Source: an uncultured Candidatus Saccharibacteria bacterium | GTDB taxonomy: Bacteria > Patescibacteriota > Saccharimonadia > Saccharimonadales > JACDBH01 | Direction of reading: 5' to 3' | NCBI GenBank assembly: GCA_964642275.1 | Contig: CAZXOA010000003.1 | Coordinates: 5,593-69,592 of the forward strand | Length of the DNA: 64,000 nt | In this document: in pieces, positions 4,395 to 41,736 of the stretch | Position numbering within the stretch: position 1 is the stretch's first letter | How the letters are laid out: each line of letters begins with the position of its first letter | Made by a program: the position numbers and the translations under genes | Notes under the pieces: generated by a model | Told to the model about the DNA's origin: nothing | What the model saw: only the letters and a program-made list of their open reading frames with translations | Databases searched by the model: none

Positions 4395-4420
4395 CCGCCA
4401 CGAAGGCGGTTTTTTATTTT
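4395..4420 (+). terminator. rho-independent terminator closing the high-GC islet (overlaps the stop of the convergent Mur ligase gene)
   Basis: CCGCC-ACGAA-GGCGG stem-loop (4395-4409) followed by TTTTTTATTTTT. Confidence 0.6.
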
Positions 4421-5664
4421 TCTAGGATTTCACGTGCGATTTCGCGTTCGTCCCACGGCATTTTTTTGCCGCCCATGGTGCGGTAGGTCTGGTGGCCGAT
4501 ACCTGTCAGCAACACGGTGTCGCCAGGTTTTGCCTCTGATAATGCCTGTCTGATAGCGTCTTTTCTATCTGGAATCACCTGGGTTTTGGCCTCGCCATCC
4601 GTCTTTTTGATACCTTCGTACACGGCATCAATGATTGCCTGCGGGTTCTCGGTATACGTCTCGTCATCTGTCAGATAGACATAATCCGCCAGGTCGGCCG
4701 CAACTTTGCCCATATCCGGCCTCTTGCCCTTGTCACGGTCGCCCGTGGCGCCAAATACCAGCCGGATATTCCCCTTTGTGGTGTCTCTGACAGTCTGCAG
4801 TACGTTTTTTAGCGCCTCGGCTGTGACGGCATAGTCCACAATCACCTCAAAGTCCTGTCCGGCCCCGATGCGCTCCATACGCCCCGGCACGCGCTTTAGG
4901 CTGGCAATCCCCTGCTCTATCTGATCGCCGGATAGCCCCACGGCTCCGCCGACACCAATGGCCGCCAGGCAGTTGTAGATATTGAACCGCCCAGGGATAT
5001 GACAGGTAATTTTTAGTTCCTTCCCCTTATAAAAAGCCGTAAACGTTGAGCCCGAAGCCGTCAGCGTGATGTCCCGTGCCTGCAGATCACCCTTGTCCAC
5101 CCCATACAAAATGGGGTTTGTGATGTCGCGCTTGAACAGCTCGGCATTGGGATCTTCGGCGTTGATAATCCCCACGCGCAGGCCCTTCTTATGCCGATTC
5201 GCCTGCTGGAATAATTTGCGCTTAGCGTCGCGATACTTTTCAAACGTCTCATGATAATCCAAGTGCTCATGTGTGACATTGGTCATAACGGCAATTTCGT
5301 ACGGCACGCCCCATGTCCGCCCCTGATGCAAAGCATGGCTTGAGGTCTCTAACACTACCCACTCCACGCCATTTTGTTTCATCTTGCCGAGCATATCCAG
5401 CAGCATGCTGACGCTCGGGGTTGTTTGCGATGTAGGACTCGGCTCTTCGCCGCTACCATAGTCTACGACTACAGTTGTAACCAGACCCACCTTGATACCG
5501 CTATCTCGCAGCATCTGAGCAACCATCAAGCAAGTCGTTGACTTACCATCAGTACCCGTTATACCAATAACCCTCATGCCGCGCAGCGGAAAGCCTCGTA
5601 ACCCATGATGCAAAACAGCCTCGATACGATGCAGCGGCGGCTTTATAGCTTCGACAATACCCAT
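4414..5664 (-). CDS. murE: Mur ligase, MurE-like, lacking the usual N-terminal domain
   Basis: 416 aa. P-loop GITGTDGKSTT at residues ~35-45. MurE-like C-terminal block DYAVTAEAL...FGATGDRDKGKRPDMG...YLTDDETYTENP. Confidence 0.8.
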   Translation of the reverse strand: MGIVEAIKPPLHRIEAVLHHGLRGFPLRGMRVIGITGTDGKSTTCLMVAQMLRDSGIKVGLVTTVVVDYGSGEEPSPTSQTTPSVSMLLDMLGKMKQNGVEWVVLETSSHALHQGRTWGVPYEIAVMTNVTHEHLDYHETFEKYRDAKRKLFQQANRHKKGLRVGIINAEDPNAELFKRDITNPILYGVDKGDLQARDITLTASGSTFTAFYKGKELKITCHIPGRFNIYNCLAAIGVGGAVGLSGDQIEQGIASLKRVPGRMERIGAGQDFEVIVDYAVTAEALKNVLQTVRDTTKGNIRLVFGATGDRDKGKRPDMGKVAADLADYVYLTDDETYTENPQAIIDAVYEGIKKTDGEAKTQVIPDRKDAIRQALSEAKPGDTVLLTGIGHQTYRTMGGKKMPWDEREIAREILEK

Positions 5665-5671
5665 ATAACCA

Positions 5672-5681
5672 AAGTATACTT
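5672..5681. promoter_or_regulatory. palindromic shared -10 element (AAGTATACTT) in the 23-nt divergent murE-like/tsaD gap
   Basis: TATACT reads on both strands. It lies 7 nt before the tsaD ATG (5688) and 8 nt before the murE-like ATG (5664). The gap has no room for an SD or a 5' UTR. Confidence 0.45.
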
Positions 5682-5687
5682 GATACG

Positions 5688-6755
5688 ATGAGAATTTTGG
5701 GCATAGAGAGCAGTTGCGACGAAACGGCAGCCGCGGTGGTCGAGATTGATGGCAGTCTGAACTGCACGCTGCTATCGAACGTAGTAGCCAGCAGCATGGA
5801 TCTTCACGTGCAATACGGCGGCGTGGTGCCCGAGATTGCAGCGCGTAGCCATATCGAGTCGATCATCCCTGTTATTGACAGGGCCGTCGCGCCTATCGGC
5901 TGGAATAACATTGACGGCATTGCCGTCACCCACGGGGCAGGACTCGGCGGTTCGCTTCTGGTAGGTGTCATGACCGCCCGTACATTGGCAATCACCAAGA
6001 ATAAACCCCTGTATGCCATGAACCACGTCGAGGGGCATGTCTACGCCAACTTCATTACCAAGACTCCCTTGTCCGGGTACGCCTTGCCGACTGCCGCGCC
6101 TGAATTCCCTTGTCTCGCCCTGATTGTCAGCGGCGGACACAGCCAATTGGCGCTCTTCCGTGATCATTTCGATTACACCTTGCTTGGGCAAACACAGGAC
6201 GATGCCGTTGGTGAGGCCTTTGATAAAGTAGCCAAAATTATCGGCCTGCCCTACCCTGGCGGCCCTTCTGTCGGTAAAAAAGCTCTTGAAGGCGACCCGC
6301 ACGCTTTCAACCTTCCAAAAGCAAAGATGGAGCGGAAATACGATTTTTCATTCTCCGGCCTAAAAACAGCCGTCCTACGGCAGGCACAAACCATGTGCGG
6401 GCAAGATTTCACGTTTCCATCCAGAATGCTGCCAGAGGCCCTCTCAGAGCCTCAGAAGGCCGACATTGCAGCTGTATTCCAACGTGTATCTATCGAAACC
6501 GTGGTTGATAAGACGACCCAAGCCTTTGAGGAGTTCTCTCCTGCCTCGGTGGTCATCGCTGGCGGCGTAGCTGCATCACCGGAGTTAAGACGCCAGCTCA
6601 AAGAGAGATTGCCCATAGAAATAAACTATCAGGACCCCAAACTCTGCACCGACAACGGTGCCATGATCGCTGCCCTCGGCGCCTTCAAAATGAAGCTCGG
6701 CCAGCCCGCCGCTGAACCCTACTCTCTCGAGATCCAACCAAACCTATCGATGTAG
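5688..6755 (+). CDS. tsaD: tRNA N6-adenosine threonylcarbamoyltransferase TsaD
   Basis: 355 aa. N-terminus MRILGIESSCDETAAAVV and the rest are typical of the Kae1/TsaD family. Confidence 0.95.
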   Translation: MRILGIESSCDETAAAVVEIDGSLNCTLLSNVVASSMDLHVQYGGVVPEIAARSHIESIIPVIDRAVAPIGWNNIDGIAVTHGAGLGGSLLVGVMTARTLAITKNKPLYAMNHVEGHVYANFITKTPLSGYALPTAAPEFPCLALIVSGGHSQLALFRDHFDYTLLGQTQDDAVGEAFDKVAKIIGLPYPGGPSVGKKALEGDPHAFNLPKAKMERKYDFSFSGLKTAVLRQAQTMCGQDFTFPSRMLPEALSEPQKADIAAVFQRVSIETVVDKTTQAFEEFSPASVVIAGGVAASPELRRQLKERLPIEINYQDPKLCTDNGAMIAALGAFKMKLGQPAAEPYSLEIQPNLSM

Positions 6756-6757
6756 AC

Positions 6758-8686
6758 CTAAAATGGACTATTTCTCATCTCTGTTGGTACCGTCTCAATT
6801 CTTGACGCATAGGGTAACACTCCCATCTCTACTGCCCGACGGCGCGTTGCACGAGGTGATGCCGCAAGCCAGTGCCACATACCGTCACCCTGAAACTTTG
6901 TCCAGTCAAAATCTGCCTTAACTCTGCCGTGCCTTGGGTCGTCCTCATATACCGTTGCCTCTTGAAGCGCCTTACCAAACTCTGTCTCAAACTTGGCCTC
7001 CCCGGAGTGATCATGCAAACCGGTGGGTACGCCTATGTTGCCTGCCAGTTCATTATTTGATTCTTGAAACCCATAAGATGTGGTGTAATGAGTACCGCCC
7101 TCAACTACCCGGCCTCCTTGCCTACGAATCGCTGCCTTTACTAGTGTGGTGCGCACCCTTTCGGCAAGAGCCTTGTGGAGCGTTTCATTTGTAGCAAGCA
7201 TGTCATCGTCTCCAAGAACACTGGTGAGCAACTCCTCTGGATTATCAATTCCTGGATATTTGTCTACGATCGCCTGCATATCATCGGCTACGGATTGATG
7301 TCTATCAATGTCTTTCTGGGGAAGGGTGTAACTGAGGTTCTCCCTCGCATTTTTTAGTCTGTTGAGAATATCAAAGTCGCTACCAATCAAATCCTCTTCA
7401 AACTTACGGTAGCCTAGCAACTCCTGGGCAGCCCGTCGATTCATCACTTCTGATACGAGCTCCGAACCTCGTAGCTCAGCAATTTCATGTGCCAACTTGT
7501 TTGCACCCTGCGCAGACCTCAGGTCGTTGGTACTGAACACCCACTTATCCTGGCCTTGCGCTATTTTGCCGTCAACAGACTCATTAGTCATCTCTATGAC
7601 AACCGTCCCAATCGGCAGAACCAGCCCCTCTCCTGGATTTACTGCAAAGTAGGTATCCACATCAGCCATCGCCGCTGGAGCACCATTAGCTTCAAGCAAA
7701 CCCGCCATCGGTGTCACAACAGTGAAGGGCCGGGCGCTAAACGTACCGTCCGAATGACTCTCGACCGGATGATTCATGGAAAAATGTATGGTGTCACGCG
7801 GAAATTGGTCTACCCTACCCTGATTAAACCCTGCTGTAGCACGTAGAAACCGACCGACTAAGGGATTGGTTTGGGTCGTGTGCACTGCCACAAGCCCTGC
7901 CTCGCGGACCCTTTCAATCACCCGAGCATCAACAAGTTCACCAGGTTCCGCAACGCGAGGATCCTCTATCTCTGCGCCCTCTATTCCAAGCCTACCTGCC
8001 TGTTGACTAACATAGTATTGCTGTAGTTTCTTTTCGCGATTTTCTACCTCTGCCATTGCCTCAGGGTTGCCCGCAGCTGCTAATGTAGCGAGCATCAAGC
8101 CCTCTTCCCTCTTTCCTCCGTCCAAAGCTGAGAGTGCCGATGCAGCAAAGATTTTATCTTCGATATCAAATAGGGCTTGGCTAGCTCCTGGATCGTTACG
8201 TAGTCGCAATAGACCTGGGAGGCGTGAAGGATCACCTTGACCATGCTTTATAAGGTGGAGCGCTGTGTCTATAACACCTTCTGGTGTAGCTGGCGCGTGG
8301 AGTACTACTTTATCTGCTGCTCGCTGACCTGCCATCTCCCATATTGATTCAGCCTGACTATCAAATGTCTCTGCGGCAGGTGTCGACATTATGGCGCTTC
8401 CGTCCTTTCGGCCACCTGTTACCATATCCGTCCATTCACCGAATCTATCACTACCAGTATGTAATGGATGTACATCGGCAGCTAAAACAACGCCAAGACT
8501 GGGCTGGTGTTCGTCTTCGATAAGAGGAAGTTCTTCCCTACCCCTGAACTGCACTTCTACATCACCGAATCCAAATCTAGTACGCTCAAAGCCTTGTGTG
8601 TCCACCACTGTCGTAGTAGTGAACAGCTGCTCCTGACTACGCAACGTTTCATTTGGATTTAACTGGAGTGAAAAAGTTTCTGTCAT
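6758..8686 (-). CDS. large hypothetical cytoplasmic protein (642 aa), orphan
   Basis: Long uninterrupted ORF with diverse composition. No signal peptide, TM or P-loop seen. Near-consensus promoter upstream (TTGACA-17-TACAAT). Confidence 0.7.
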   Translation of the reverse strand: MTETFSLQLNPNETLRSQEQLFTTTTVVDTQGFERTRFGFGDVEVQFRGREELPLIEDEHQPSLGVVLAADVHPLHTGSDRFGEWTDMVTGGRKDGSAIMSTPAAETFDSQAESIWEMAGQRAADKVVLHAPATPEGVIDTALHLIKHGQGDPSRLPGLLRLRNDPGASQALFDIEDKIFAASALSALDGGKREEGLMLATLAAAGNPEAMAEVENREKKLQQYYVSQQAGRLGIEGAEIEDPRVAEPGELVDARVIERVREAGLVAVHTTQTNPLVGRFLRATAGFNQGRVDQFPRDTIHFSMNHPVESHSDGTFSARPFTVVTPMAGLLEANGAPAAMADVDTYFAVNPGEGLVLPIGTVVIEMTNESVDGKIAQGQDKWVFSTNDLRSAQGANKLAHEIAELRGSELVSEVMNRRAAQELLGYRKFEEDLIGSDFDILNRLKNARENLSYTLPQKDIDRHQSVADDMQAIVDKYPGIDNPEELLTSVLGDDDMLATNETLHKALAERVRTTLVKAAIRRQGGRVVEGGTHYTTSYGFQESNNELAGNIGVPTGLHDHSGEAKFETEFGKALQEATVYEDDPRHGRVKADFDWTKFQGDGMWHWLAASPRATRRRAVEMGVLPYASRIETVPTEMRNSPF

Positions 8687-8901: not shown

Positions 8902-9142
8902 CATTTTCACGTGAAGCTGATAACAGAGAAGCGGGGGCAGAACGGGATAAAATGACCGGCTTTATCGCCTCTTAACAACTGTTGGGCAGGTTTTTTGAGC
9001 CAAGGGTAATTTGCTCTAAGCTGAGGCTTCCATTTCGGAAGCGTATCTGTGAATACGATGAAGAAATGTCCTCGGCTTAGGACAAATTACCACTCTCAAA
9101 ATGTCTGCGCGCAAATATAACAGGGGTGATATAATACATTGG

Positions 9143-11704
9143 ATGAAACTCTCAAAAACCTACGAACCTAGCCAATATGAGTCAATGATCTATGAGCTCT
9201 GGGAGCAGAGCGGTGCTTTCAAACCGCGCGAGGGCAGGGAGCCGTTTGTGACTATCATGCCGCCACCAAACGCCAACGCAAACCTGCACATTGGGCACTC
9301 GCTCAACAATGCACTGCAGGATATCGCGGTACGCTACCAGCGTATGCAAGGAAAATCAGCCTTGTTTCTACCAGGGGCAGACCATGCCGGGTTCGAAACG
9401 CAGGTAGTGTACGAAAAGCACCTCGCCAAAGAAGGGAAGAGCCGGTTTGACCTGAGCCGTGAAGAGCTCTACAGCCAGATTTATGATTTTGTCCAAAACA
9501 ACAAGGGTGGATTTGAAAGGCAGCTGCGTACGCTTGGCGCATCAGTAGACTGGAGCCGGTTTACCTTCACGCTTGATGAAAAAGTGGTGAAGACCACCTA
9601 CGGCACCTTCAAGAAGCTGTGGGACGATAAACTTATTTACAGAGGTGAGAGACTGGTCAACTATTGCACCTTCCACCGCACCAGCTTCGCCGATATCGAG
9701 GTGGTGCACGAGGAGACTGCCAGCCCGCTGTACTATCTGAAGTACGGGCCGTTTACGCTGGCAACCACCCGGCCAGAAACCAAATTCGGCGATACTGCCG
9801 TGGCTGTACATCCAGATGACGAACGGTACAAAGAATATATCGGCAAGGTTTTGACGATCGAGGGCTTGAATGGGCCGTTTGAGCTGCGCGTCGTGGCTGA
9901 TGAATATGTTGACCAAGCATTTGGAACGGGGGTAGTAAAGATTACCCCTGCACACGACTTCAACGACTGGGACGTTGCCCAGCGCCACAACCTGGAAGCT
10001 GTCCGGGTCATTAACCATGACGGCACGCTCAACCATAGGGCAGGGAAGTTCGAAGGCATGACAGTGCTTGATGCCCGCAAGGCAGTGGTGAAGGAGCTGA
10101 AAGACAAAGGGCTGCTCGAGAAGATTGATGAGAAGTACCAGAACAGGGTAGGGAAGTGTTACAAATGCGGCACGGTTATCGAGCCGATGCTGATGGACCA
10201 ATGGTTTATCGATATGAAACAGCTTGCCGGGCCTGCCATCAAGGCACTCAAAGCGGATCACATTACCTTTTATCCGAGCTCGAAACGCGACCAGCTGATT
10301 GCCTACCTCGAGAATGTAAAGGATTGGAATATCTCACGGCAGATCGCTTGGGGCATACCGATTCCGGCCTTCCAGAACATCGAAGATACTGACGACTGGA
10401 TATTCGACGAACGGGTTGCCTCCGAAATACTCGAGATAGACGGCAAGACCTACCGGCGTGATCCGGATGTGTTCGACACCTGGTTCAGCTCGGGCCAGTG
10501 GCCATTCGTAACCATGGGCTATCCAGATAACCCTGATTTTGAGCAATTTTATCCCAACACACTCATGGAGACAGGCATCGATATCCTCTACCAGTGGGTA
10601 GGACGCATGATCGTGCTGGGGCTGTATGTGACGGGCAAGATGCCGTTTAAGGATGTCTACCTGCACGGCATGGTGCGCTCTGAGGATGGCCGCAAGATGA
10701 GCAAATCGCTCGGAAATGTCATTGACCCCAAAGAGGTTATTACCTCCCACGGCTCAGACGCGCTGAGAATGGGCATTATCGCTGGACGCAGCGCCGGTTT
10801 TAGCGCTGCGTACGCACCCGGCAAGATCGATGCGGCCCGCAACTTCTGTAACAAGCTCTGGAATGTGGCACGGTTTGTCGAAGGCATCATCGGCGACAGC
10901 TTCGACAGGCGTCACAAACCTGTACCAGAAACTGTTGCGGATCATTGGGTGTTGACTAAACTACAACAATCAATCGAAAAGATCTCTGCTGACCTAGAGA
11001 ACTACCGGTTCTCAGAAGCCTATGACACGCTGTACCATACCGTGTGGGATGATTTTGCCGATTGGTACATCGAGGCCAGCAAGAGCCATCCGAACCATGC
11101 GGTCCTGGCATATTCACTTGAAACCATCCTTAAACTTGCCCATCCGTTTGCACCGTTTGTGACCGAAACCATCTGGCAGACCCTTAAGTGGGAAAAGGAC
11201 ACGCTGTTGATTTCAAGCACATGGCCCACGCTGAAGCCAGGTGACGCTACTCAGACAGCCGCGTTTGAGACTGTTAGAGCCATTGTGAGCGAGGCTAGGG
11301 CCATGGTGCGTAATCTGGTCCTGAGGAGCCCTGAGATGTACTACACGGGCTCAGAATTGCTGAGGGAGCACGGTGCGCTTATCAAGCGTCTTGCTAGGCT
11401 CGAGAGCCTGAGAGAAGTGAGTGATGGTAACGGCTTGCATCTGACAGGGACCACCGAAAACTGCTGGATTGCGGTCGATCAAGAGACGGCAAGTAATTAC
11501 CTTGGCAAATTACAGGAGCAGCAGACCGCAGAAGCCGCCTCTGTACAGAGGCTAAAGGGCCGTCTCAGCAATGATTCCTACGTGAAAAACGCACCCAAGA
11601 AGCTGGTAGACGAAACCAAACAGCAGCTGCACGACAGCGAGCAGCGCCTGCAACAGATCAACACCGAAATCGACAGTTTTTCAGAGGCCAGCAAAACATT
11701 GTAA
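9143..11704 (+). CDS. valS: valine--tRNA ligase
   Basis: Class I motifs NLHIGH and KMSKS. C-terminal coiled coil. ORF track starts at 9101, but MKLSKTYEPSQYESMIYELWE (ATG 9143) matches the usual ValRS N-terminus and sits 7 nt after TGaTATAAT (9127-9135). Confidence 0.95.
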   Translation: MKLSKTYEPSQYESMIYELWEQSGAFKPREGREPFVTIMPPPNANANLHIGHSLNNALQDIAVRYQRMQGKSALFLPGADHAGFETQVVYEKHLAKEGKSRFDLSREELYSQIYDFVQNNKGGFERQLRTLGASVDWSRFTFTLDEKVVKTTYGTFKKLWDDKLIYRGERLVNYCTFHRTSFADIEVVHEETASPLYYLKYGPFTLATTRPETKFGDTAVAVHPDDERYKEYIGKVLTIEGLNGPFELRVVADEYVDQAFGTGVVKITPAHDFNDWDVAQRHNLEAVRVINHDGTLNHRAGKFEGMTVLDARKAVVKELKDKGLLEKIDEKYQNRVGKCYKCGTVIEPMLMDQWFIDMKQLAGPAIKALKADHITFYPSSKRDQLIAYLENVKDWNISRQIAWGIPIPAFQNIEDTDDWIFDERVASEILEIDGKTYRRDPDVFDTWFSSGQWPFVTMGYPDNPDFEQFYPNTLMETGIDILYQWVGRMIVLGLYVTGKMPFKDVYLHGMVRSEDGRKMSKSLGNVIDPKEVITSHGSDALRMGIIAGRSAGFSAAYAPGKIDAARNFCNKLWNVARFVEGIIGDSFDRRHKPVPETVADHWVLTKLQQSIEKISADLENYRFSEAYDTLYHTVWDDFADWYIEASKSHPNHAVLAYSLETILKLAHPFAPFVTETIWQTLKWEKDTLLISSTWPTLKPGDATQTAAFETVRAIVSEARAMVRNLVLRSPEMYYTGSELLREHGALIKRLARLESLREVSDGNGLHLTGTTENCWIAVDQETASNYLGKLQEQQTAEAASVQRLKGRLSNDSYVKNAPKKLVDETKQQLHDSEQRLQQINTEIDSFSEASKTL

Positions 11705-12502: not shown

Positions 12503-13402
12503 TTACAGAGAAGCGGCTTGTGATGCTGGAGCAGGGGAAGGCGCTGGCTGTGTGGCAGCTACCCCAGTTTCGGGCTCTAGCGCATCACGCACGCGCGCTA
12601 CGGATTCGTCAGGGCGATAATCGTCAAACCACATGACCTTCCAGCCGAGCTGGCCGGCGGCCATGACATTGGGACGCGAATCATCGATCAGCAGGATTTC
12701 GGCAGCGTCTACGCCTGCCTTCTCCTGAGCGATCTCAAAGATCCGGGACTCCGGCTTGATAGCGTCCACCTGTGATGAGTCAATAATGGCGTCGTATGGC
12801 ACATCGGGCAATAACCCGGAGGTAATCATATCTGCTATAAACCCGGGCATGATGTTGCTGAGCAGACCGATCTTGTAATGCTGCGATGCCCATGCTACTA
12901 CCTCGTGCATCTGCGGAATCGCCTCGACTGCATCCATGTAGTATTGCTTCCAGTCCACCATGATGTGGCAGGTTTCTGCCATGATGCGGTTGAACTCGTC
13001 CAGCGGCATTTCACCGCGACAGACGGCATCGTTGTAGTGCCAAAAGGTGGTTTCTATCAGATCCGCCGAGACGCCGCTGTCGCCCGCTAGACGGTTAAAG
13101 GCCTGATGAAAGAAGCGCACCAGACAGCCGTTGATATCAAAGTAGACAAAGGTAATGCCGCTCTTGCTGCGGCCTTTTTTGACCGGGTCGGGGGCAAAGC
13201 TGCCCATAAGGCTATCAAGCGAGGTGCCAAGCACTTCGGCCAGCCGCTGGATCGTGAAAACCGAAGGGGACTTGATGGCCCCGCGCTCTATCTTGGCCAA
13301 GGTCGAATACGAGATGCCGGCTTTTTGGCATAATTCCTGCTGTGTCAATCCGGCTGCCTGCCTGGCCGTCTGCAGCTGCCTGCCTAAACTCTGTTCATCC
13401 AC
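12503..13402 (-). CDS. XRE-family HTH domain fused to a HAD-like hydrolase domain
   Basis: N-terminus LTQQELCQKAGISYSTLAKIERG is HTH_3-like. C-terminal part has HAD motifs FVYFDINGCL (DxN/DxD-type motif I) and LLIDDSRPNV (motif IV-like). Confidence 0.75.
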   Translation of the reverse strand: MDEQSLGRQLQTARQAAGLTQQELCQKAGISYSTLAKIERGAIKSPSVFTIQRLAEVLGTSLDSLMGSFAPDPVKKGRSKSGITFVYFDINGCLVRFFHQAFNRLAGDSGVSADLIETTFWHYNDAVCRGEMPLDEFNRIMAETCHIMVDWKQYYMDAVEAIPQMHEVVAWASQHYKIGLLSNIMPGFIADMITSGLLPDVPYDAIIDSSQVDAIKPESRIFEIAQEKAGVDAAEILLIDDSRPNVMAAGQLGWKVMWFDDYRPDESVARVRDALEPETGVAATQPAPSPAPASQAASL

Positions 13403-13595
13403 GACCTACGCACCACCCTTTCTCAGACCGAACCTGGCTCGCCGTGAGGCTTCGAGCGCAGACCGTACCCTCTCTACTGTCATTCCTTGGCTGCATTGTC
13501 CCTCCACCTAAATCCCGCCCTCTTTTGACGGAATTCATATAGGACTATGATACCAATGAATCGCGGTTTAGACTAGCAAAAGTTGTATTATCTGG

Positions 13596-14212: not shown

Positions 14213-14264
14213 GCGTATTAGTATACCAGAATACCTCTGTTATACTGGAGATTGCCGAGTCTTA

Positions 14265-14439: not shown

Positions 14440-14530
14440 GGAGAGGTGGCTGAGCTGGTTGAAGGCGCACGACTCGAAATCGTGTGAGGCGTCAAAACCT
14501 CCGAGGGTTCGAATCCCTCTCTCTCCGCCA
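14440..14530 (+). tRNA. tRNA-Ser (anticodon CGA), CCA encoded
   Basis: Manual cloverleaf: acceptor GGAGAGG/TCTCTCC, anticodon arm CACGA-CTCGAAA-TCGTG, long variable arm, T-arm GAGGG-TTCGAAT-CCCTC. TATAAT at 14423-14428. Confidence 0.9.
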
Positions 14531-14533
14531 TAG

Positions 14534-14563
14534 AAAAACCCTCACCAAATAGTGAGGGTTTTT
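14534..14563. terminator. bidirectional terminator between convergent tRNA genes
   Basis: AAAAACCCTCAC-caaata-GTGAGGGTTTTT. Confidence 0.75.
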
Positions 14564-14566
14564 CTA

Positions 14567-14643
14567 TGGTATACCCGGCAGGATTTGAACCTACGACCTT
14601 CAGTACCGCAAACTGACGCTCTATCCAGCTGAGCTACGGGTAC
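14567..14643 (-). tRNA. tRNA-Arg (anticodon GCG), CCA encoded
   Basis: Reverse complement folds as GTACCCG-TA-GCTC-AGCTGGATA-GAGC-G-TCAGT-TTGCGGT-ACTGA-AGGTC-GTAGG-TTCAAAT-CCTGC-CGGGTAT-A-CCA. G1-U72 wobble. Confidence 0.85.
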
Positions 14644-15640: not shown

Positions 15641-15749
15641 ATGGTTTATTGTACCACTAGGAATTGCGAGAAGAGAAGAGCTGGAATTTTTGGCCAGAGC
15701 CCTGTATAATCAACCCCTGTTACGAGGTGTTTCCGCATTGTGCACATAC

Positions 15750-15842
15750 GGAGAGGTACCCAAGTGGCTGAAGGGGACGGTTTGCTAAATCGTTAGTGGG
15801 GCGAGAGTTCCAGCGAGGGTTCGAATCCCTCTCTCTCCGCCA
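15750..15842 (+). tRNA. tRNA-Ser (anticodon GCU), CCA encoded
   Basis: Acceptor GGAGAGG/TCTCTCC. Anticodon arm ACGGT-TTGCTAA-ATCGT. Long variable arm. T-arm GAGGG-TTCGAAT-CCCTC. Confidence 0.9.
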
Positions 15843-15872
15843 GATATATGCACAGAAGAACATCTCTTACGT

Positions 15873-15962
15873 GGAGAGATGACCGAGCGGTTGAAGGTAG
15901 CTGTCTTGAAAACAGCCGTGCCGGAAACGGTACCGTGGGTTCGAATCCCACTCTCTCCGCCA
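15873..15962 (+). tRNA. tRNA-Ser (anticodon UGA), CCA encoded
   Basis: Acceptor GGAGAGA/TCTCTCC. Anticodon arm GCTGT-CTTGAAA-ACAGC. Variable arm CGTGCCGGAAACGGTACC. T-arm GTGGG-TTCGAAT-CCCAC. Confidence 0.9.
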
Positions 15963-15997: not shown

Positions 15998-16295
15998 TGC
16001 TATATTTCTATCTTTGCTCAAGTGACGGTCGCAAGACTACCTGCGGAGTAAGGCCCTGGATCTCGAGTATTCCTCTTCCAAGCGCACCTGTGACGACCCA
16101 GCTTACGTGTCTCTTATCCATAAAATCACTTAAATCTAAGATCTGCCAACGAAACAAAACCTTCGCACCCGTCTAGATACGATTTAGGGAGCTCTCTATC
16201 GAGATCTGCTTGAGGACTTCGCTCATAGTCTCGTACCGGATTATCAAGAGGGAACCTGTCAGCTGAACATACTGTCATAAGCCGAGTATATTCCC

Positions 16296-17090
16296 TTAAC
16301 GGGCGCGGGCAAATACGGCGGCGTCTACGGATTTTGCGCCCGCCTCTTTGAGGGTCCGGGCGGCGGACTCGAGTGTGGCGCCAGTTGTGAGTACGTCATC
16401 TATCAGCAGAACAGGGCGGTTTTGAAGCAAAAACCCAGCCTTGGCACGAAAAGCGCCGTCCATGCTTTCCAATCGTTCTTTGCGCTTGGAGCCAACCTGG
16501 CGGTGCTGCCCGAGCCGGGTTAGGGCAGGGACATGCCTGTAGCCGCTCAACTTTGAAAATTCACGGGCAATCCGCGCCGCATGGTCGAAGCCGCGCTGGC
16601 GCACATGCGAAGTGATAGTCGGCACATGCACGATAAGCGTATTGGCGGGCAGGGCAGGAATTGTACTCATGAGCTCGCGGGCGATCAGGTCGGCTGCCTC
16701 GCCCGAGTACGAAAACTTCATTTTGTGCACCAGTTCCTTCGAGGCAGACGTGTACTCGGTCCTGGTAAAAACATGCTTCAGCGCTGTTTTTCGCCTGCAG
16801 GCGGGACAGACCTGGCCACCTTTGGACAGACGATTGCACCGATAGCACCGGCTTTCCTCGGCCGGCAGGAGGTCGTCAACACACCACAAACAGAGGAGTG
16901 GCCCCTCTGTTTGGCACCCCATACAGTGCGACGGGGCAATCAGGCGATAAAAGTGTTCAACAAGCCTCACTATGACTCCATTCTCCCACCGGCTGAACAA
17001 GTGTTGTGTATATTGTGTTGTAAATAAGTGCACAAAACCTTTGCACACTGTTATATATCTAGCTATACTAGTACCAAGATAAAAAATCAA
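16296..17090 (-). CDS. comFC: ComF-family protein (zinc-finger + phosphoribosyltransferase domain); start uncertain
   Basis: Cys clusters CMGC...CLWC and CYRC...CPAC. PRTase motif VLLIDDVLTTGATL. The track start at 17090 overlaps the hsp20 promoter, so the real start is probably further inside. Confidence 0.75.
   Translation of the reverse strand: MIFYLGTSIARYITVCKGFVHLFTTQYTQHLFSRWENGVIVRLVEHFYRLIAPSHCMGCQTEGPLLCLWCVDDLLPAEESRCYRCNRLSKGGQVCPACRRKTALKHVFTRTEYTSASKELVHKMKFSYSGEAADLIARELMSTIPALPANTLIVHVPTITSHVRQRGFDHAARIAREFSKLSGYRHVPALTRLGQHRQVGSKRKERLESMDGAFRAKAGFLLQNRPVLLIDDVLTTGATLESAARTLKEAGAKSVDAAVFARAR
17041..17069 (+). promoter_or_regulatory. hsp20 promoter
   Basis: TTGCAC (17041-17046), 17 nt, TATACT (17064-17069). 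Followed by SD GGAGGGGAG and ATG 17125. Confidence 0.5.
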
Positions 17091-23353: not shown

Positions 23354-23362
23354 TGGTATATT
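23354..23362 (+). promoter_or_regulatory. extended -10-like element (TGgTATATT) 8 nt before the VirB6-like ATG
   Basis: TGG at 23354-23356 and TATATT at 23357-23362, with ATG at 23371. No SD in between. Confidence 0.35.
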
Positions 23363-27264: not shown

Positions 27265-27370
27265 CAGAAAATATCACCTTGCCACTAGCTACTAGTCACT
27301 GGTTGCCAAATCATCTATAATCTATCTGAAGATCAACTCTTCTTGTAAGGTGGGCATATAATTACTATTT

Positions 27371-28403: not shown

Positions 28404-28421
28404 TCCTGAAAGGAGCGTCTG

Positions 28422-30341
28422 ATGGCTTTTGGCAAAAAAAATGATGCCGCTGCAAGCGACCCTGTTGCATTGGCCCAGGCTCAGAGGCTCCGTGAAGAGC
28501 AAGAGGTACAGGCAGCATTCCAAAAAGGCATTACCGCGCTACGCGATTTTATTGCCCCAAGTTCGATCGAATTCCAGAGCGGATTTTTCCGCATCGGCAC
28601 ACGTTATGCGCGAACTTTTTATGTCTACGGCTATCCAAGACAGATCTTCACTGGCTGGCTCAGCGGCATGGTTAATCTTGATGAAGTCATCGACCTGAGT
28701 ATGTTTATCTATCCCGTGGAGAGTCAAGTGGTGCTCGAAAACCTCCGCAAAAAGGTCACCCAGCTCGAAGCTGGTCTGCAAATCGATGCCGAGAAGGGCC
28801 GTGTCCGCGACCCGGGCAAGCAGGCGGCAATCCAGGACGCTGAAGAAATGCGCGACAAACTGCAGGTAGGCGAAGAGCGATTTTTCCGTCTTGGCCTTTA
28901 CTTTACCCTGTACGCTGGCAGCCAGGAAGAGCTTGAGTTTGTCACCCACAAGGTTGAGTCTCTGCTTGGCCAGCAGCTCGTCTACAGCAAGCCCGCCAGC
29001 GCTCAGCAAGAGCAAGGACTCAACAGCAGCGTGCCTCAGTTTACCGACCAATTGCAGATCAGGCGCAACATGAACACCGGAGCCCTGAGCACAACTTTTC
29101 CGTTTACATCGGCAGATCTCAGTCAGGAAAACGGCATTATGTATGGTATTAATATGCACAACTCAGGGCTGGTTATCTTTGACCGTTTCTCTCTCGAAAA
29201 CGGTAACTCAGTGGTGTTTGCCAAGTCTGGTGCTGGTAAAAGTTTTGCTGTGAAGCTCGAAGCATTGCGATCGCTTATGTTCGGCACCGAGATATTTATT
29301 ATCGACCCGGAGAACGAATACCAGCGCATGGCCGAAGCGGTTGGTGGAGCCTATGTACGGCTCAGTCTCAACTCTGTCACCCGCATCAATCCGTTTGACC
29401 TCCCTCAGGTTGTCGACAGCGAGGAGGCTGACAATGCACTGCGGAGCAACCTCATCACCCTTCACGGGCTCCTACGCCTCATGATGGGCGGAGCACAGGC
29501 GCAGATGGCAGGACAGCAAGCCGGTGCAATCATGCCAGCCCTGAGCCCGGTCGAGGAGGCTGATCTCGATGCAGCGCTTATCGAGACGTACGCTCGGGCA
29601 GGGATTACCAACGATCCGCTCACACACCAGTCGCCAGCTCCGACTATTGCCGACCTGTACGACGTACTCCTGCACATGGGTAATACCGGGCCGCAGCTTG
29701 CCCAGCGGCTGCGCAAGTACACCAGCGGTACTTTTGCGGGTATTTTCAGCCAGCCGAGCAATATCGATATCAACAATCCGTTGGTAGTATTCAATGTCCG
29801 TGACCTCGAGGACGAACTTCGTCCAGTAGCAATGTATATTGTCCTGAACTATATCTGGAACAAAACCAAGGCTGACCAAAAGCGCCGTATTCTAGTGGTC
29901 GACGAAGCCTGGCAGCTTATGAAGTATGAAGATTCGGCCAGCTTCTTATTCTCATTAGCCAAGCGAGCGCGCAAGTACAACCTGGGTATCACTACTATTA
30001 CGCAAGATGTTGAAGATTTTATGGGCTCACGTATGGGTCGTGCAATTGTTGCCAACGCCAGTATGCAGCTGCTGCTCAAGCAGTCTACATCTGCGGTTGA
30101 CGTCTTGTCGGAGGTGTTTAAGTTGACGAGCGAAGAGAAGAAACGGCTTAGTCAATTCCCGGTTGGGCAGGGACTGTTCTTTGCCGGGCAAAATCATGTT
30201 CATATTCAGATTTTGGCCAGCCCAACCGAACAAGGGCTTATAACCACCAACCCATCACAAGTACAGGCCATGGAGGCTGGCGAAATAAGCCAGGGGCAAG
30301 GTACAATAGACCTTGATAACAGATTAGCTCCAGGGATGTAG
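28422..30341 (+). CDS. virB4: VirB4-family T4SS ATPase
   Basis: 639 aa. Walker A VVFAKSGAGKSF, Walker B RILVVDEAWQLM. N-domain ...FIAPSSIEFQSGFFRIGTRYARTFYVYGYPRQIFTGWL typical of Gram-positive-type VirB4 (PrgJ/TrsE-like). Confidence 0.9.
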   Translation: MAFGKKNDAAASDPVALAQAQRLREEQEVQAAFQKGITALRDFIAPSSIEFQSGFFRIGTRYARTFYVYGYPRQIFTGWLSGMVNLDEVIDLSMFIYPVESQVVLENLRKKVTQLEAGLQIDAEKGRVRDPGKQAAIQDAEEMRDKLQVGEERFFRLGLYFTLYAGSQEELEFVTHKVESLLGQQLVYSKPASAQQEQGLNSSVPQFTDQLQIRRNMNTGALSTTFPFTSADLSQENGIMYGINMHNSGLVIFDRFSLENGNSVVFAKSGAGKSFAVKLEALRSLMFGTEIFIIDPENEYQRMAEAVGGAYVRLSLNSVTRINPFDLPQVVDSEEADNALRSNLITLHGLLRLMMGGAQAQMAGQQAGAIMPALSPVEEADLDAALIETYARAGITNDPLTHQSPAPTIADLYDVLLHMGNTGPQLAQRLRKYTSGTFAGIFSQPSNIDINNPLVVFNVRDLEDELRPVAMYIVLNYIWNKTKADQKRRILVVDEAWQLMKYEDSASFLFSLAKRARKYNLGITTITQDVEDFMGSRMGRAIVANASMQLLLKQSTSAVDVLSEVFKLTSEEKKRLSQFPVGQGLFFAGQNHVHIQILASPTEQGLITTNPSQVQAMEAGEISQGQGTIDLDNRLAPGM

Positions 30342-38033: not shown

Positions 38034-39125
38034 CTACGAACGAAGAGGCATAATAATATGCTTATAGTCAGTGCTCTTTGGGTCGGAAAGCAGACAGGCA
38101 TCCAGCTTGCCATTAAACTGAAAAGTGACGGTGTCTCCAGAAAATACGTGGAGCGCATCAAGTACATAACGCGAATTAAGCGTCACCTCTCCAGAGCCAG
38201 ACACCTGAGCATCGGCACTTGCGGTATTTTCTCCAAGCTGCGAGGCAACCGAGTTAATACTCACCTGACCAGACGCCTCGTCGACGAGGATTGTAATACT
38301 GCCGGCAGACTCGCGTGCAAATAGCGACGATACCTTTGTGATATTAGTAAAGTCAGCCCTGCTGAGTGTAGCGGTCACTGAGAATTCAGATGGTATGAGC
38401 TTTCGGTAATCCGGATATGACCCCTCGATTAATCTGCTCACAAGCTCGATTTCGCCTACTGTAAACAAGATTTGCTGGTCATCAAACGAAACAGTGACTA
38501 CCTCGTCACCATCGCCCAGTATGCGCAGCAAATCCTGCATGGCGCTGCCGGGAATCAACAAAGCTGTCTCTCCGCTTGATTTTATCAGTGCCTTTTCAGC
38601 CAGCCGGTAGCTATCAGTGGCAACAATATGGAACTTTCCCTCAAATGTATGGAGATATACGCCTGTGAGCACGGGCCGGGCCTCGTCTGTAGACACTGCT
38701 ACCACTACTTGCTGAAGCGCCTTTTTGAGAACTGTTGAAGAAATCTCAATAGACTGCCCGCCTGTAATTGCCGGCATAACAGGGAAGTCGTCTGCTGGCA
38801 CACCATTGATGGTTGACGTATATTGGCCAGCCGCAATATGAAGCTTGTTATCAGTTAATTCTAGGTCAATAACGCCACTTGGTAGACTGCTCACAAAATC
38901 CTGCATGAGACGCGCCGGCACTGTGATTGCACCGCCTTCGCTTACCTTCGAGCCGATGTGGTGTGTAATAGCTATATCAAGGTTTGTCGCTACGACGCTT
39001 AGTCTATTATCGACAGTCTTTATAAGTACGTTGCCAAGAATAGGGAGGGAGTTGCGGGTATTTGCAATACGGGCAACCGATCCAAGTGCTTTGCTCAGAT
39101 TTTCCTGGGTGACTTGGAGCTTCAT
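38034..39125 (-). CDS. dnaN: DNA polymerase III beta sliding clamp
   Basis: 363 aa. MKLQVTQENLSKALGSVARIANTRNSLPILGNVLI... Position between dnaA and recF. Confidence 0.95.
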   Translation of the reverse strand: MKLQVTQENLSKALGSVARIANTRNSLPILGNVLIKTVDNRLSVVATNLDIAITHHIGSKVSEGGAITVPARLMQDFVSSLPSGVIDLELTDNKLHIAAGQYTSTINGVPADDFPVMPAITGGQSIEISSTVLKKALQQVVVAVSTDEARPVLTGVYLHTFEGKFHIVATDSYRLAEKALIKSSGETALLIPGSAMQDLLRILGDGDEVVTVSFDDQQILFTVGEIELVSRLIEGSYPDYRKLIPSEFSVTATLSRADFTNITKVSSLFARESAGSITILVDEASGQVSINSVASQLGENTASADAQVSGSGEVTLNSRYVLDALHVFSGDTVTFQFNGKLDACLLSDPKSTDYKHIIMPLRS

Positions 39126-39380
39126 ATACTTATTCCTTTCTTTATTTTGCCTTGGTATTTATAAGCCCTGTGGACGATGTGCACAAACTGGTGGATTACA
39201 GATGTGATATGTTCAAATAGGTGTGTGAAAAATGCGGAAGACCGCGAGGCTATCTGTGTGCACTTTGCGGAAAATAAAGAGCCTTTACGCACAGGCATGT
39301 AGCAGGCATTAGACGGGTGTGTATATGTGGAGCAGTTATCCCACACCCTCAGCCACTGGTTGTACACAGCCTCTCCACAC

Positions 39381-40757
39381 TTATGCATAGAGACGCTCCT
39401 TGATATCGTTGACGTGCTGGCGAAGCACGGTGTCAAACGACATCTCCTGCTCGACCTTGTCTACGGAATGGATAGCGGTGGTGTGGTCTTTGCGGCCGAG
39501 CTCACGGGCAATCTTAGGGAAGCTGAGGTGTAGTTCGCTGCGCAGTATATACATAGCGATTTGCCGGGGCATGACAATATCCTTGTCTCGCTTCGGCCCC
39601 ATGATTTCCTCGAGCGACACCTGGAAGTGTTTCGATACGCGTTCAACCACTTGCCGGGCGCTAATGTGCTTTGGTCGCGACTTATTACTGTTTAGCAAAC
39701 TCGTCACAATAGCGACGTCTGGCTCAAGATTGCGCATTTCGCAAAAAGCGATCAGCTGGTTAAGTGCTCCCTCGAGCTCGCGGATATTCGTCTGAATATG
39801 ATTAGCCAGATAGTCTACTACGTCGCTCGGTAGCTTGATCCCAACAGCGTCTGCCTTTGACTGCACAATCGCGCAGCGCGTCTCAAAATCCGGGTTTTGC
39901 ATATCAATCGACATGCCCCAGGCAAAGCGGCTGCGCAGCCTCTCCTCAAGAGTAGGAATATCTTTCGGCGGCTTGTCGCTGCTAATAATGACCTGTTTAT
40001 TAGCCTGATGCAGGGCGTTGAAGGTATGAAAAAACTCCTCCTGAGTCTTATCTTTACCGGCAATAAACTGCATATCGTCAATTATCAACACATCGGCATT
40101 GCGGTAATACCCGGCAAAGTCAGTATTTTTTTTGTAGCGAACCGCGTCGATAAATTCCTGGACAAACTGCTCAGTCGATACGTATACCACACGCGTTCCG
40201 GGATTTCTGGTAAGAATTGCATTGCCGACTGCCTGGATGAGGTGGGTTTTTCCAATCCCGACACCGCCATAAATAAACAATGGGTTGTACTTTGTGCCAG
40301 GATTCGTGGCGATTGCCTGGCAGGCCGCATGAGCCAGCTCGTTGCCAGACCCGACGATAAAATTATCAAAGGTATATTTTTCGTTGAGACCCTGCCGGTA
40401 TGAGTGGCTCAGCCCGCTGCTGGTCGGGTGGGGAGTTGTACTCCCGGAGTTGGCGGGTGCTGGCGCGGGGTTGAGCTGCATGGGCTCCTCGGCTTCACGC
40501 ACAGGCTTGATATCGGTGTGGATTTTGTATTCGATCCGCTCGGGGTTTATCTGATTTTTTGCCAGTGTTTCGCGGATGAGGTCGTCATATTTCTTCTCAA
40601 GCTGCTGTTTTATGAATACATTGGCTACACCCACAGTCAGGACATCATCCTTATAACGCAGCAGGCGCGTGTTTTTGAACCACGTCAGGTAATTGCCTCT
40701 CGACACACTGAGCTCGATCTCGCCCAAAACAGCCTGCCAAAGTCTTTCGTCGTGCAC
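39381..40757 (-). CDS. dnaA: chromosomal replication initiator DnaA
   Basis: 458 aa. AAA+ Walker A GGVGIGKTHL. C-terminal DNA-binding segment ...KDHTTAIHSVDKV. GTG start with GAGG SD. Confidence 0.97.
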   Translation of the reverse strand: MHDERLWQAVLGEIELSVSRGNYLTWFKNTRLLRYKDDVLTVGVANVFIKQQLEKKYDDLIRETLAKNQINPERIEYKIHTDIKPVREAEEPMQLNPAPAPANSGSTTPHPTSSGLSHSYRQGLNEKYTFDNFIVGSGNELAHAACQAIATNPGTKYNPLFIYGGVGIGKTHLIQAVGNAILTRNPGTRVVYVSTEQFVQEFIDAVRYKKNTDFAGYYRNADVLIIDDMQFIAGKDKTQEEFFHTFNALHQANKQVIISSDKPPKDIPTLEERLRSRFAWGMSIDMQNPDFETRCAIVQSKADAVGIKLPSDVVDYLANHIQTNIRELEGALNQLIAFCEMRNLEPDVAIVTSLLNSNKSRPKHISARQVVERVSKHFQVSLEEIMGPKRDKDIVMPRQIAMYILRSELHLSFPKIARELGRKDHTTAIHSVDKVEQEMSFDTVLRQHVNDIKERLYA

Positions 40758-41094
40758 AGTTACCTCAAAATCCCTCGCGTTACCTTTTCATTACTGTAGC
40801 AAAGTTACCTACTTTTCCACAAGCTGTGAGCAAAAATTACAAAAACTATAGAGAAATTTACCAAAACAGGGTAGGAATTATGCACAGATTTCCCCAACAC
40901 CTTGAATTCTGTGGAAAGGTATAGCAAAAAAGTGGAAAACCTGATAAAATTTGTGGGTTATTATTGTCAAAACTACGGCAGCGACAAAAACAAGAAGCTA
41001 GGAATCAGGAAGGGGCCGCGGTAATGCCCTAACAGGGTTTCGTAGATCTGCTTTCTTGTTACACTATCTCCGAGTTACTAATCAAAGGATTTAT
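40758..41094. other. probable oriC / dnaA control region (cluster of DnaA-box-like 9-mers between divergent dnaA and rpmH)
   Basis: TTTTCCACA (40813-40821), TTATGCACA (40878-40886), TGTGGAAAG (40910-40918), AGTGGAAAA (40931-40939), TGTGGGTTA (40952-40960). Each has 1-2 mismatches to TTATCCACA/TGTGGATAA. AT-rich stretches lie between them. Confidence 0.65.
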
Positions 41095-41232
41095 ATGCCA
41101 AAGCGAACCTATCAGCCAAAGAAGCGCAAGCGAGCACGCGAGCACGGCTTTTTTGCACGCATGAAGACCCGGGCGGGGCAGAACGTACTTGCACGCCGCC
41201 GCCTCAAGGGCCGCAAGAAAATCTCTGCTTAA
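41095..41232 (+). CDS. rpmH: 50S ribosomal protein L34
   Basis: Below the ORF-track cut-off. My translation is [53 protein letters not shown]. Confidence 0.95.
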
Positions 41233-41258
41233 GAGAGTCTTTAAACCTCCTGCAGAGT

Positions 41259-41300
41259 GTCAAAAACTCATTCAACCGTTCAGTTGAATGAGTTTTTGAC
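41259..41300 (+). terminator. 18-bp perfect inverted repeat after rpmH (attenuator/terminator before rnpA)
   Basis: GTCAAAAACTCATTCAAC-cgttca-GTTGAATGAGTTTTTGAC. The inner 10 bp followed by TTTTT has intrinsic-terminator geometry. Confidence 0.6.
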
Positions 41301-41333
41301 AGAACAGCTCTGCAAGTAACGTATCATAGAACT

Positions 41334-41684
41334 ATGCTCTCACAGATCAATCGATTCCATGGTCACGGCAGCGTCCGCCGGGCGTATCGGACGGGCACAC
41401 CGGTTCGCGGCGGTGCAATGAGCCTGCATGTCGTAAAGGGCGAGCACGTCAAAAAAACCCACGTTGCAGTTGTTGTCAGTCGAAAGATCCACAAATCAGC
41501 CGTCAAGCGCAACCGGATCCGCCGCCGGATTTATGAAATTATGCGCCGCCGCATTGACTCATGGCGGACCCCCTGCGAGGTAGTCGTAACCATCTATCAG
41601 CCCGACATTATCCACATGCCGTCCCCGGAGCTCGAAAAAACAATCGACGATCTGCTTCGCCGGGCACACATATCCCAAAAATGA
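41334..41684 (+). CDS. rnpA: ribonuclease P protein component
   Basis: 116 aa. Basic, with the KSAVKRNRIRRRIYEIMRRR RNR-type motif. Position after rpmH. Confidence 0.9.
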   Translation: MLSQINRFHGHGSVRRAYRTGTPVRGGAMSLHVVKGEHVKKTHVAVVVSRKIHKSAVKRNRIRRRIYEIMRRRIDSWRTPCEVVVTIYQPDIIHMPSPELEKTIDDLLRRAHISQK

Positions 41685-41707
41685 CCAGCAGAGGCCAGCG
41701 CTCATGC

Positions 41708-41736
41708 TTGGTCTCATGATGTAAAACAGATATAAT
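41708..41736 (+). promoter_or_regulatory. promoter upstream of yidC leader
   Basis: TTGGTC (41708-41713), 17 nt, TATAAT (41731-41736). Confidence 0.5.

Follow-up and report, generated by a model that had tools for sequence, protein, structure and literature searches.

Promoter geometry points to mixed leaderless and Shine-Dalgarno-led translation initiation in a Candidatus Saccharibacteria genome

Introduction

Within the 64,000-nt stretch considered here (positions 5,593 to 69,592 of contig CAZXOA010000003.1, assembly GCA_964642275.1), which comes from an uncultured Candidatus Saccharibacteria bacterium and is referred to below as the window, a Mur-ligase-family gene and tsaD diverge from start codons separated by only 23 nt (5662–5690). 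An initial annotation, made from the letters of the window alone, took the palindromic pair of −10-like hexamers in this gap, together with similarly placed hexamers before several other genes, as a sign that leaderless mRNAs are widespread in this genome, side by side with genes led by a Shine-Dalgarno (SD) sequence. That proposal is examined here in the window and in related loci.

The putative divergent promoter between the Mur ligase gene and tsaD

The Mur-ligase-family gene occupies 4414–5664 on the minus strand and encodes 416 amino acids, its ATG reading as CAT at 5662–5664; tsaD runs on the plus strand from ATG 5688–5690 to 6755. Both identities, as well as those of the class-I tRNA synthetase, HIT and GIY-YIG genes discussed below, had been proposed in the initial annotation and are upheld by Pfam (Mur_ligase_M/C, with Mur_ligase_M from residue 35, and TsaD). 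As for the starts themselves, the N-terminal pattern M.FR..VKK.IP is kept among Mur ligase orthologues, and an independent public gene call has the identical start. For tsaD a start farther downstream is impossible, because the N-terminus encoded from ATG 5688, MRILGIESSCDE, is already the conserved TsaD N-terminus (family form M[KR][IV]LGIE[TS]SCDE).

The gap between the two start codons (5665–5687) holds, as had been described, a perfect palindrome as its sole promoter-like content: the 10-bp AAGTATACTT at 5672–5681, which reads TATACT toward both genes. Its 8-bp core, AGTATACT, consists of two overlapping −10 hexamers on opposite strands, that of tsaD at 5675–5680 (plus strand), 7 nt before the ATG, and that of the Mur ligase gene at 5678 to 5673 (minus strand), 8 nt before the ATG. 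A −35-like TCGACA lies at 5651–5656 (plus strand), 18 nt upstream of the tsaD hexamer and within the Mur-ligase coding sequence, and the combination TCGACA-18-TATACT reaches 10 of 12 matches in a generic two-hexamer promoter scan. The two ATGs are 24 bp apart and the opposing hexamers share 4 bp; with such an overlap two polymerases cannot occupy the palindrome at once, and the two binding modes are presumably mutually exclusive. The gap would then act as a promoter in both directions and yield a divergent pair of leaderless mRNAs, in the most compact arrangement possible, with predicted 5′ ends at G5687 or A5688 for tsaD and at A5666 or A5664 for the Mur ligase gene.

Comparison with other genomes bears directly on this arrangement. 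The main comparison set comprises the loci around tsaD in 80 related Saccharibacteria genomes (L001–L080; 1.36 Mb, 1263 first ATGs), and the closest TsaD relatives, at 65–81% identity, all belong to metagenome-assembled genomes (MAGs) of Candidatus Saccharibacteria/Saccharimonadales. The divergent pair, in the form CAT-N7-8-AGTATACT-N7-9-ATG with a gap of 22–24 nt, is present in 15 genomes (the window and 14 species representatives); across these the core is invariant, and the flanking spacers of 7–9 nt differ at nearly every position. In the other genomes tsaD and the Mur ligase gene are mostly not adjacent, and each has its own TAnnnT 6–9 nt before the ATG. One locus (L013, ~9956–10001) keeps the core 9 nt before the tsaD ATG; there the Mur ligase gene has a leader of 27 nt, in which AGGAG stands 7 nt from the start codon. 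This reads as a one-sided switch of the Mur ligase gene from leaderless to SD-led, tsaD still being served by the shared palindrome.

The closest known parallel in design is the class of bidirectional promoters described by Warman et al. (bioRxiv 10.1101/2020.01.31.928960), in which opposite-strand −10 hexamers likewise overlap within one pseudo-palindrome. The divergent starts predicted here, 21–24 bp apart, fall inside the 7–25 bp range of those promoters and beside their 23-bp class, and where those promoters drive mRNA both ways, the same is proposed here from the DNA sequence. The present case differs in that both transcripts would be leaderless, so that all of the divergent control is compressed into the 23 bp that separate the start codons, and in that the palindrome, unlike those pseudo-palindromes, is perfect (AGTATACT) and conserved in at least 15 species.

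Leaderless-type starts elsewhere in the window

At every one of the sites named in the initial annotation a −10-like hexamer does lie 7–8 nt before the ATG, as direct checking of the coordinates confirms, and four of the hexamers are of the extended −10 type. The class-I tRNA synthetase gene valS has TGaTATAAT at 9127–9135 (plus strand), 7 nt before ATG 9143; an upstream ATG at 9101 is not the start, MKLSKTYEP at 9143 being what fits the N-terminus of 69 orthologues. On the minus strand the HIT gene (Pfam HIT from residue 11) has TGgTATACT at 14228 to 14220 and the GIY-YIG gene TGgTACAAT at 15656 to 15648, each 7 nt before its ATG (14212 and 15640, respectively). The two arms of a type IV secretion system (T4SS) locus likewise begin with such starts: the first gene of the minus arm (197 amino acids) has TACACT at 23294 to 23289, 7 nt before ATG 23281, and that of the plus arm (921 amino acids) has TGgTATATT at 23354–23362, 8 nt before ATG 23371. 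A further ATG at 23353 lies within the latter promoter and is unlikely to be the true start; the 921-residue protein as read from 23371 opens with MKRFKK followed by a hydrophobic stretch, typical of signal or transmembrane N-termini. A gene for a 70-residue protein has TATAAT at 43669–43674 (plus strand), 7 nt before ATG 43682, directly 3′ of a terminator-like hairpin with a T-run (~43637–43660).

Two starts absent from the earlier list can be added, both on the plus strand. A 303-codon gene has TATAAT at 27357–27362, 8 nt before ATG 27371, and rnpA (Pfam Ribonuclease_P, residues 6–111) has TATCAT at 41322–41327, 6 nt before ATG 41334. All 10 clean cases in the window are either divergent, or follow a gap of at least 100 nt, or follow a terminator.

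Positional enrichment

For counting, a strong −10 was defined as TA...T with at least two of the three middle positions matching, and a leaderless-type start as one with a strong −10 at a spacer of 6–9 nt. Among 55 curated starts of the window 11 are leaderless-type, against 1.2±1.1 when the upstream 30 nt are shuffled (maximum 6 in 2000 shuffles), and a motif-blind first-ATG rule yields 6 of 46 against 1.0±1.0. For the 29 sites of the form strong −10-N6-9-ATG on both strands of the window, the comparison is 11 gene starts against 47 of 2033 other ATGs (Fisher p = 8e-11).

The scan was carried, along lines the initial annotation had suggested, from the window to the tsaD-anchored set, where the −10-like signal peaks at 6–9 nt, and to an independent set of yidC-anchored metagenome loci (L082–L161; 80 loci, 0.43 Mb), where the overall signal is much weaker, ~7% of starts. 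At the 1263 first ATGs a strong −10 stands at spacers of 6, 7, 8 and 9 nt in 8.1, 6.6, 5.1 and 3.6% of cases (23% in sum), over a background of ~0.6% per position elsewhere upstream and 0.1–0.2% at internal ATGs. In all, the 80 tsaD-anchored loci hold 295 leaderless-type starts against 31±6 in shuffles. These loci are syntenic, and the proteins were therefore clustered into 460 families, each counted once: 19% of the families fall in the 6–9 nt bin against 2–5% in every other 4-nt bin, and the 379 singleton families place 72 members there against 8–21 in the other bins. Because the per-family and singleton counts keep the 6–9 nt peak, the signal is no artefact of orthologue redundancy. At spacers of 6–9 nt there are 401 matches at candidate ATGs against 17, the background level, at GTG.

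Promoter signature versus ribosome-binding site

What accompanies these hexamers is characteristic of promoters. Among leaderless-type hexamers 38% have TG at the extended −10 position, against 2–11% (about 4%) at neighbouring offsets, and the consensus upstream of the aligned hexamers shows T-G-G at −3 to −1 and TTG at −23 to −21. TTGACA is matched at 4 or more of its 6 positions, at a spacing of exactly 17 nt, in 18%, against ~3.5% at other spacings (12–23). The TGn element and the −35 both belong to σ70 promoters; neither plays a part in ribosome binding. Most of these promoters have an extended −10 and lack a −35, which explains why a generic two-hexamer promoter scan of 5–16 kb of the window was not enriched overall (13 sites against 9.4±3.3 in shuffles).

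The hexamers also keep apart from SD sequences and from operon interiors. A leaderless-type hexamer and an SD core occur together in only 7 of the 295 cases, where ~70 would be expected under independence. Of the starts that have a same-strand gene ending within 25 nt, 12% are leaderless-type, against 25–52% of the others, and the SD share rises to 43% in this tight class. In the spacer-6 class the ATG begins with the 7th base past the hexamer, and a pyrimidine immediately precedes it in 90% of cases, compared with ~60% in other genes. Transcription start sites (TSS) prefer a pyrimidine at −1 and a purine at +1, Y(−1)R(+1), and the pyrimidine thus fits transcription that starts at the A. In all these respects the hexamers behave as σ70 promoters, not as ribosome-binding sites (RBS).

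It is on these grounds that we regard as very unlikely an explanation that makes the TA-rich hexamer a non-SD element for ribosome binding or translation enhancement inside an ordinary leader, like the A/T-rich signals found in Bacteroidetes (GeneMarkS-2 group B), the promoters lying farther upstream. Such an element would sit where these hexamers sit, since their distance to the start equals that of an SD; Saccharibacteria ribosomes are reduced (PMC9297842), and even the 23-nt gap is compatible in sequence with an upstream promoter inside the opposite gene. An RBS, however, accounts neither for the TGn and the −35 at exactly 17 nt nor for the pyrimidine at −1, which fits a transcription start, and a group-B motif should persist before tightly packed operon-internal genes, where these hexamers are depleted. 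It also fails to anticipate the behaviour of valS, whose TGn-10 shifts elsewhere to 26–46 nt upstream, an SD then appearing between box and ATG. A Bacteroidetes-type regime is alike in that many genes have no SD and an A/T-rich signal near the start codon. Its motif, however, belongs to the leader and stands before internal operon genes as well, whereas the motif here comes with TGn/−35, avoids operon-internal genes and alternates with SD; as judged from sequence, that regime does not fit.

Conservation and switching of valS and other genes

The valS start is anchored in 69 genomes by the conserved MKLPKxYEP...YxxWE, which allows the upstream boxes to be compared at a fixed codon. In 38 of the 69 a −10, with or without TGn, stands 6–10 nt from the ATG, and only 2 of these 38 also show an SD-like core. 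In 22 of the 69 a box of this type is found farther upstream, beyond 20 nt and mostly at 26–46 nt, and here an SD-like core (AGGA/GAGG/AAGG) intervenes in 15 of the 22. The gene reads as a natural experiment in which, between genomes, there is either a near promoter without SD or a distant promoter with SD. Two others, rnpA and the Mur ligase gene (L013), appear to toggle in the same way; among rnpA orthologues 3–4 of 15 have the leaderless geometry and 6 of 15 are SD-led, a mixed picture.

These comparisons also weigh on a different possibility, very unlikely indeed as we see it, namely that the promoters are real and the assigned ATGs wrong, translation starting at a downstream codon so that the leaders are ordinary and merely happen to contain an ATG. 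Start codons are here predicted, and there are in-frame alternatives a few codons downstream (TTG 5697 in tsaD, GTG 15616 in the GIY-YIG gene). Yet the conserved sequence of tsaD, valS, Mur ligase, rnpA and HIT begins at residues 1–11 from the proposed start, the downstream candidates have no SD before them, and the upkeep of an ATG 6–9 nt from the −10 across genomes would go unexplained if that ATG were untranslated.

As to an artefact of chance or composition, with favourable cases picked from AT-rich intergenic DNA, the frequency of bare TANNNT (~3% per upstream position) and the unenriched generic scan (13 vs 9.4±3.3) speak for it, and it is already refuted by the shuffle tests (1.2±1.1 against 11 in the window, 31±6 against 295 in the loci), by a peak limited to 4 positions with flat flanks, by the Fisher p of 8e-11 and by a palindrome kept amid diverged flanks.

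Directly upstream of the valS and HIT −10 boxes there stands a further motif, TAACAGRGGT, which has three exact matches in the window (9118–9127, plus strand; 14233–14242 and 15713–15722, minus strand) and, with at most one mismatch, 13 against 5.5±2.2 in shuffles. It precedes valS in most of the L001–L080 loci, in the form aACAGAGGTGnTAnnAT, and an inverted copy, CCTCTGTTA, often lies 20–30 nt upstream (L032, L047, L054, L068). We considered TAACAGRGGT as a general promoter element and rejected it in that role, as it is conserved mainly before valS and does not belong to the leaderless signal; a gene-specific operator is its probable nature.

SD-led and other start classes

The SD-led half of the picture is equally a matter of position. 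A GGAG/GAGG/AGGA core lies 3–13 nt upstream in 28 of the 55 curated window starts, and genes that are not leaderless-type show an SD peak at 5–9 nt. The examples offered in the initial annotation (jag, virB4, hsp20 and the SGNH gene) are borne out by sequence and Pfam: jag/KhpB has AGGAGG, Hsp20 GGAGG, GDSL/SGNH GGGAGG, and the VirB4-like gene AGGAG, within an AAAGGAG 6 nt before ATG 28422 (span 28405–28424, plus strand). SD-led starts other than that of the VirB4-like gene, with Pfam support for the named genes as also for DnaA, are those at 2646 (groEL), 3055 (groES), 17125 (hsp20), 19915, 26140, 33582, 35530, 42990 (jag), 46503 (GDSL) and 61196. Every one of the tightly coupled internal genes of the window has an SD (26140, 33582, 35530, 61196 and others).

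The same holds in the comparison loci. In the tsaD-anchored set groES/EL are SD-led in 84–93% of cases and never leaderless-type; in the yidC-anchored set an SD precedes yidC in 56 of 78 (1 leaderless-type), jag in 48 of 59, dnaN in 27 of 30 and dnaA in 17 of 37, with no leaderless-type start for the last three. Because the genes of the yidC set are stably SD-led and rnpA is mixed, the architecture is gene-specific and heritable and no general property of upstream DNA. The mixed regime proposed at the outset thus rests on the SD side on groES/EL, yidC, jag, dnaN, dnaA and the operon-internal genes.

A third class, leadered yet without SD, is suggested by the gene for a 642-residue protein at 6758–8686 (minus strand), where a near-consensus promoter, TTGACA-17-TGnTACAAT (8750 to 8722), is followed by a ~35-nt A-rich leader without SD. 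For yidC a fixed upstream design is kept in L082–L161: catgcTATAGT, ~12–18 nt, AAGGAG, 7–10 nt and the ATG (MFTT[LI]IV.PI). In the window (upstream region 41850–41899) yidC starts at GTG 41897 with the same N-terminus. It lies in a neighbourhood of replication-origin type (38034–43484) that comprises dnaN (38034–39125, minus strand), dnaA (39381–40757, minus strand, with a GTG start and SD), rnpA (41334–41684), the yidC-like gene (41897–42880) and jag/khpB (42990–43484), the last three on the plus strand. Four tRNA genes lie at 14440–14643 and 15750–15962.

Several small open reading frames (ORFs) also begin in the leaderless geometry. On the minus strand TATACT stands 6 nt before ATG 16278 (16129–16290), the start of a 50-codon ORF just downstream of a poorly scoring 264-codon ORF (16296–17090); it is a candidate small leaderless gene. 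Also on the minus strand, TGgTATCAT stands 8 nt before ATG 13538 (13395–13555), and the 47-codon ORF that begins there ends 8 nt inside the GTG-13402 start of a gene for a 299-residue helix-turn-helix-like protein, which has only a poor SD; one possibility for this ORF is a small upstream gene of the leaderless type, another a frameshifted N-terminus. On the plus strand TATAAT at 60093–60098 lies 6 nt before ATG 60105, which opens a 7-codon mini-ORF, MRSSVET (60093–60128), whose TGA overlaps, as ATGA, the ATG of a gene for a 356-residue protein (60125–61195) that has no SD; the mini-ORF could be leaderless and feed ribosomes to the larger gene by termination-reinitiation. As a general device, leaderless mini-ORFs coupled to downstream genes were rejected: a pooled test gave 36 against 23–40 at control spacings, with no enrichment.

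In four comparison loci a conserved run, ATGATnGAGTGGAgcG...CCTCTGCCGAaCG...GCTAGATG, extends from a TGgTAttAT box to the ATG of a gene for a protein of 280–300 residues (minus strand in each: L057 ~15830, L036 ~15535, L042 ~7958, L059 ~14923). The run from ATGATnGAGTGGAgcG to GCTAGATG would be either a leaderless upstream ORF of 7–24 codons or a structured leader RNA.

Discussion

The positional peak, the TGn and −35 elements, the exclusion of SD and the conservation between genomes, which together make up what can be observed directly along with the geometry itself, support the initial annotation in its claim of a widespread leaderless architecture, the word leaderless being our reading of promoter geometry. 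We consider it probable, with a good measure of confidence, that this Saccharibacteria genome uses two modes of translation start, one leaderless and one SD-led, and the comparative evidence makes a mixed regime of this kind well supported.

In mechanistic terms, about half of the genes would start by way of a classical SD 5–9 nt before the start codon; among them are the operon-internal genes together with groES/EL, hsp20, yidC, jag, dnaN and dnaA. Some 20% of the genes, always the first of their transcription unit, would instead have a σ70 −10 only 6–9 nt before the ATG, often in the extended form TGnTAnnnT. An extended −10 of this form needs no −35, and RNA polymerase initiates 7–9 nt downstream of the −10 box. 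Initiation at that distance would place the start of transcription at the A of the ATG or 1–2 nt before it, and the mRNA would then have neither leader nor SD. Such an mRNA would be decoded through direct recognition of its 5′-terminal AUG by the 70S/initiator-tRNA pathway that Actinobacteria, Deinococcus and archaea are known to use. In this scheme the translation pathway and the precise 5′ ends are the predicted parts.

A number of points weigh against so broad a reading. The 5′ ends assigned to the leaderless-type genes are predicted from the DNA sequence, and with spacers of 7–9 nt transcription could start 1–2 nt before the A (G5687, A5666), giving leaders of 1–2 nt. Some starts are ambiguous: the TACACT of the T4SS minus arm is the weakest of the hexamers, with 4 of 6 matches and no TGn, and the starts at 18705 and 22683 combine a −10-like hexamer at 6 nt with an SD-like core at 12 nt. 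The gene calls are rough, relying as they do on codon usage and on the first ATG, and with only two anchor genes the genome-wide fraction is an extrapolation; the leaderless-type share itself varies by region, from ~23% around tsaD and ~17–20% in the window to ~7% around yidC. The confinement of the signal to ATG, which we had considered as proof of 5′-AUG initiation, discriminates weakly, because GTG and TTG starts are rare overall in the loci, even among SD-led genes. Finally, no 16S rRNA 3′ end, from which the anti-SD could be confirmed, was found within the window and the fetched loci.

The pattern as a whole belongs to a known type. In group C of the GeneMarkS-2 classification a Pribnow box lies 6–8 nt from the start and 25–50% of transcripts are leaderless (Lomsadze et al. 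2018, PMC6028130). In the survey of Zheng et al. (2011, PMC3160421) TA-led genes, with TANNNT ~12 bp from the start, exceed 20% of the gene complement in Actinobacteria and Deinococcus-Thermus, and the same survey notes the TAtaaT form and a TG peak in medium- and low-GC groups. Shared with these systems are the Pribnow box TANNNT 6–8 nt before the first gene of a transcription unit (here with its peak at 6–9 nt), the retention of SD by the remaining genes in a mixed regime in which some 20–40% of transcripts are leaderless, and the shifting of a gene's initiation type between related genomes. Where the present case differs is in its host, a ~1-Mb genome of 50% GC from the candidate phyla radiation (CPR), of which the Saccharibacteria are part, and whose ribosome is reduced; as far as could be checked, the surveys do not include this phylum. 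The −10 differs as well, being here a full TAtaaT with frequent TGn as opposed to the bare TAnnnT of high-GC Actinobacteria, and the start codon is ATG only, where mycobacteria also use GTG.

A leaderless regime is thus known in other phyla; what is new here is a further phylum with a mixed leaderless/SD regime, which should come as no great surprise to the specialist, and the most attractive detail is the compact, conserved bidirectional palindromic promoter. The statement in the initial annotation that such a regime is not documented for genomes of this kind agrees with our literature search, which found nothing that connects Saccharibacteria, CPR, Patescibacteria or Nanosynbacter to leaderless mRNA; the search did not cover the supplementary genome tables of the surveys, and a silent earlier classification there is possible. 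The nearest matches were only citations of GeneMarkS-2, a discussion of YchF, and anti-SD loss in some Parcubacteria. A preprint on the TM7x transcriptome contains no analysis of TSS, promoters or untranslated regions, and the only Saccharibacteria TSS set found consists of 188 coverage-inferred TSS for TM7x, used in PMC12641261.

Whether leaderless initiation is a major and selectively maintained mode in Saccharibacteria, perhaps in CPR, with lineages switching individual genes repeatedly by sliding one extended −10, is to our minds an evenly balanced question. On this reading the leaderless mode would serve essential housekeeping genes (valS, tsaD, Mur ligase, rnpA) along with the heads of type IV secretion operons, and the 23-bp palindromic promoter would be a minimal bidirectional unit making two leaderless mRNAs.

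The practical consequences concern annotation and expression. Gene callers that rely on RBS only tend toward upstream ATGs, and could here take valS from 9101 instead of 9143 and the T4SS plus-arm gene from 23353 instead of 23371; with a leaderless class taken into account, start codons would be called better across thousands of CPR MAGs. Saccharibacteria have become genetically tractable only recently, and in the design of expression cassettes a bare TGnTATAAT-N7-ATG may suffice, many native genes having no RBS. The conserved bidirectional promoter, palindromic and 23 bp long, is a neat regulatory unit of minimal size that lends itself to direct testing in vitro.

For the biology of the group, a leaderless regime here would widen the known range of this mode beyond Actinobacteria and Deinococcus-Thermus. 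CPR ribosomes are without several proteins and rRNA helices (PMC9297842), and a sizeable leaderless regime would tie this reduction to an initiation pathway that is considered ancestral. If leaderless initiation is indeed a major mode there, the reduced CPR ribosome would be naturally proficient at 5′-AUG initiation of the 70S type, and cultured Saccharibacteria would offer a tractable model for that supposedly ancestral pathway.

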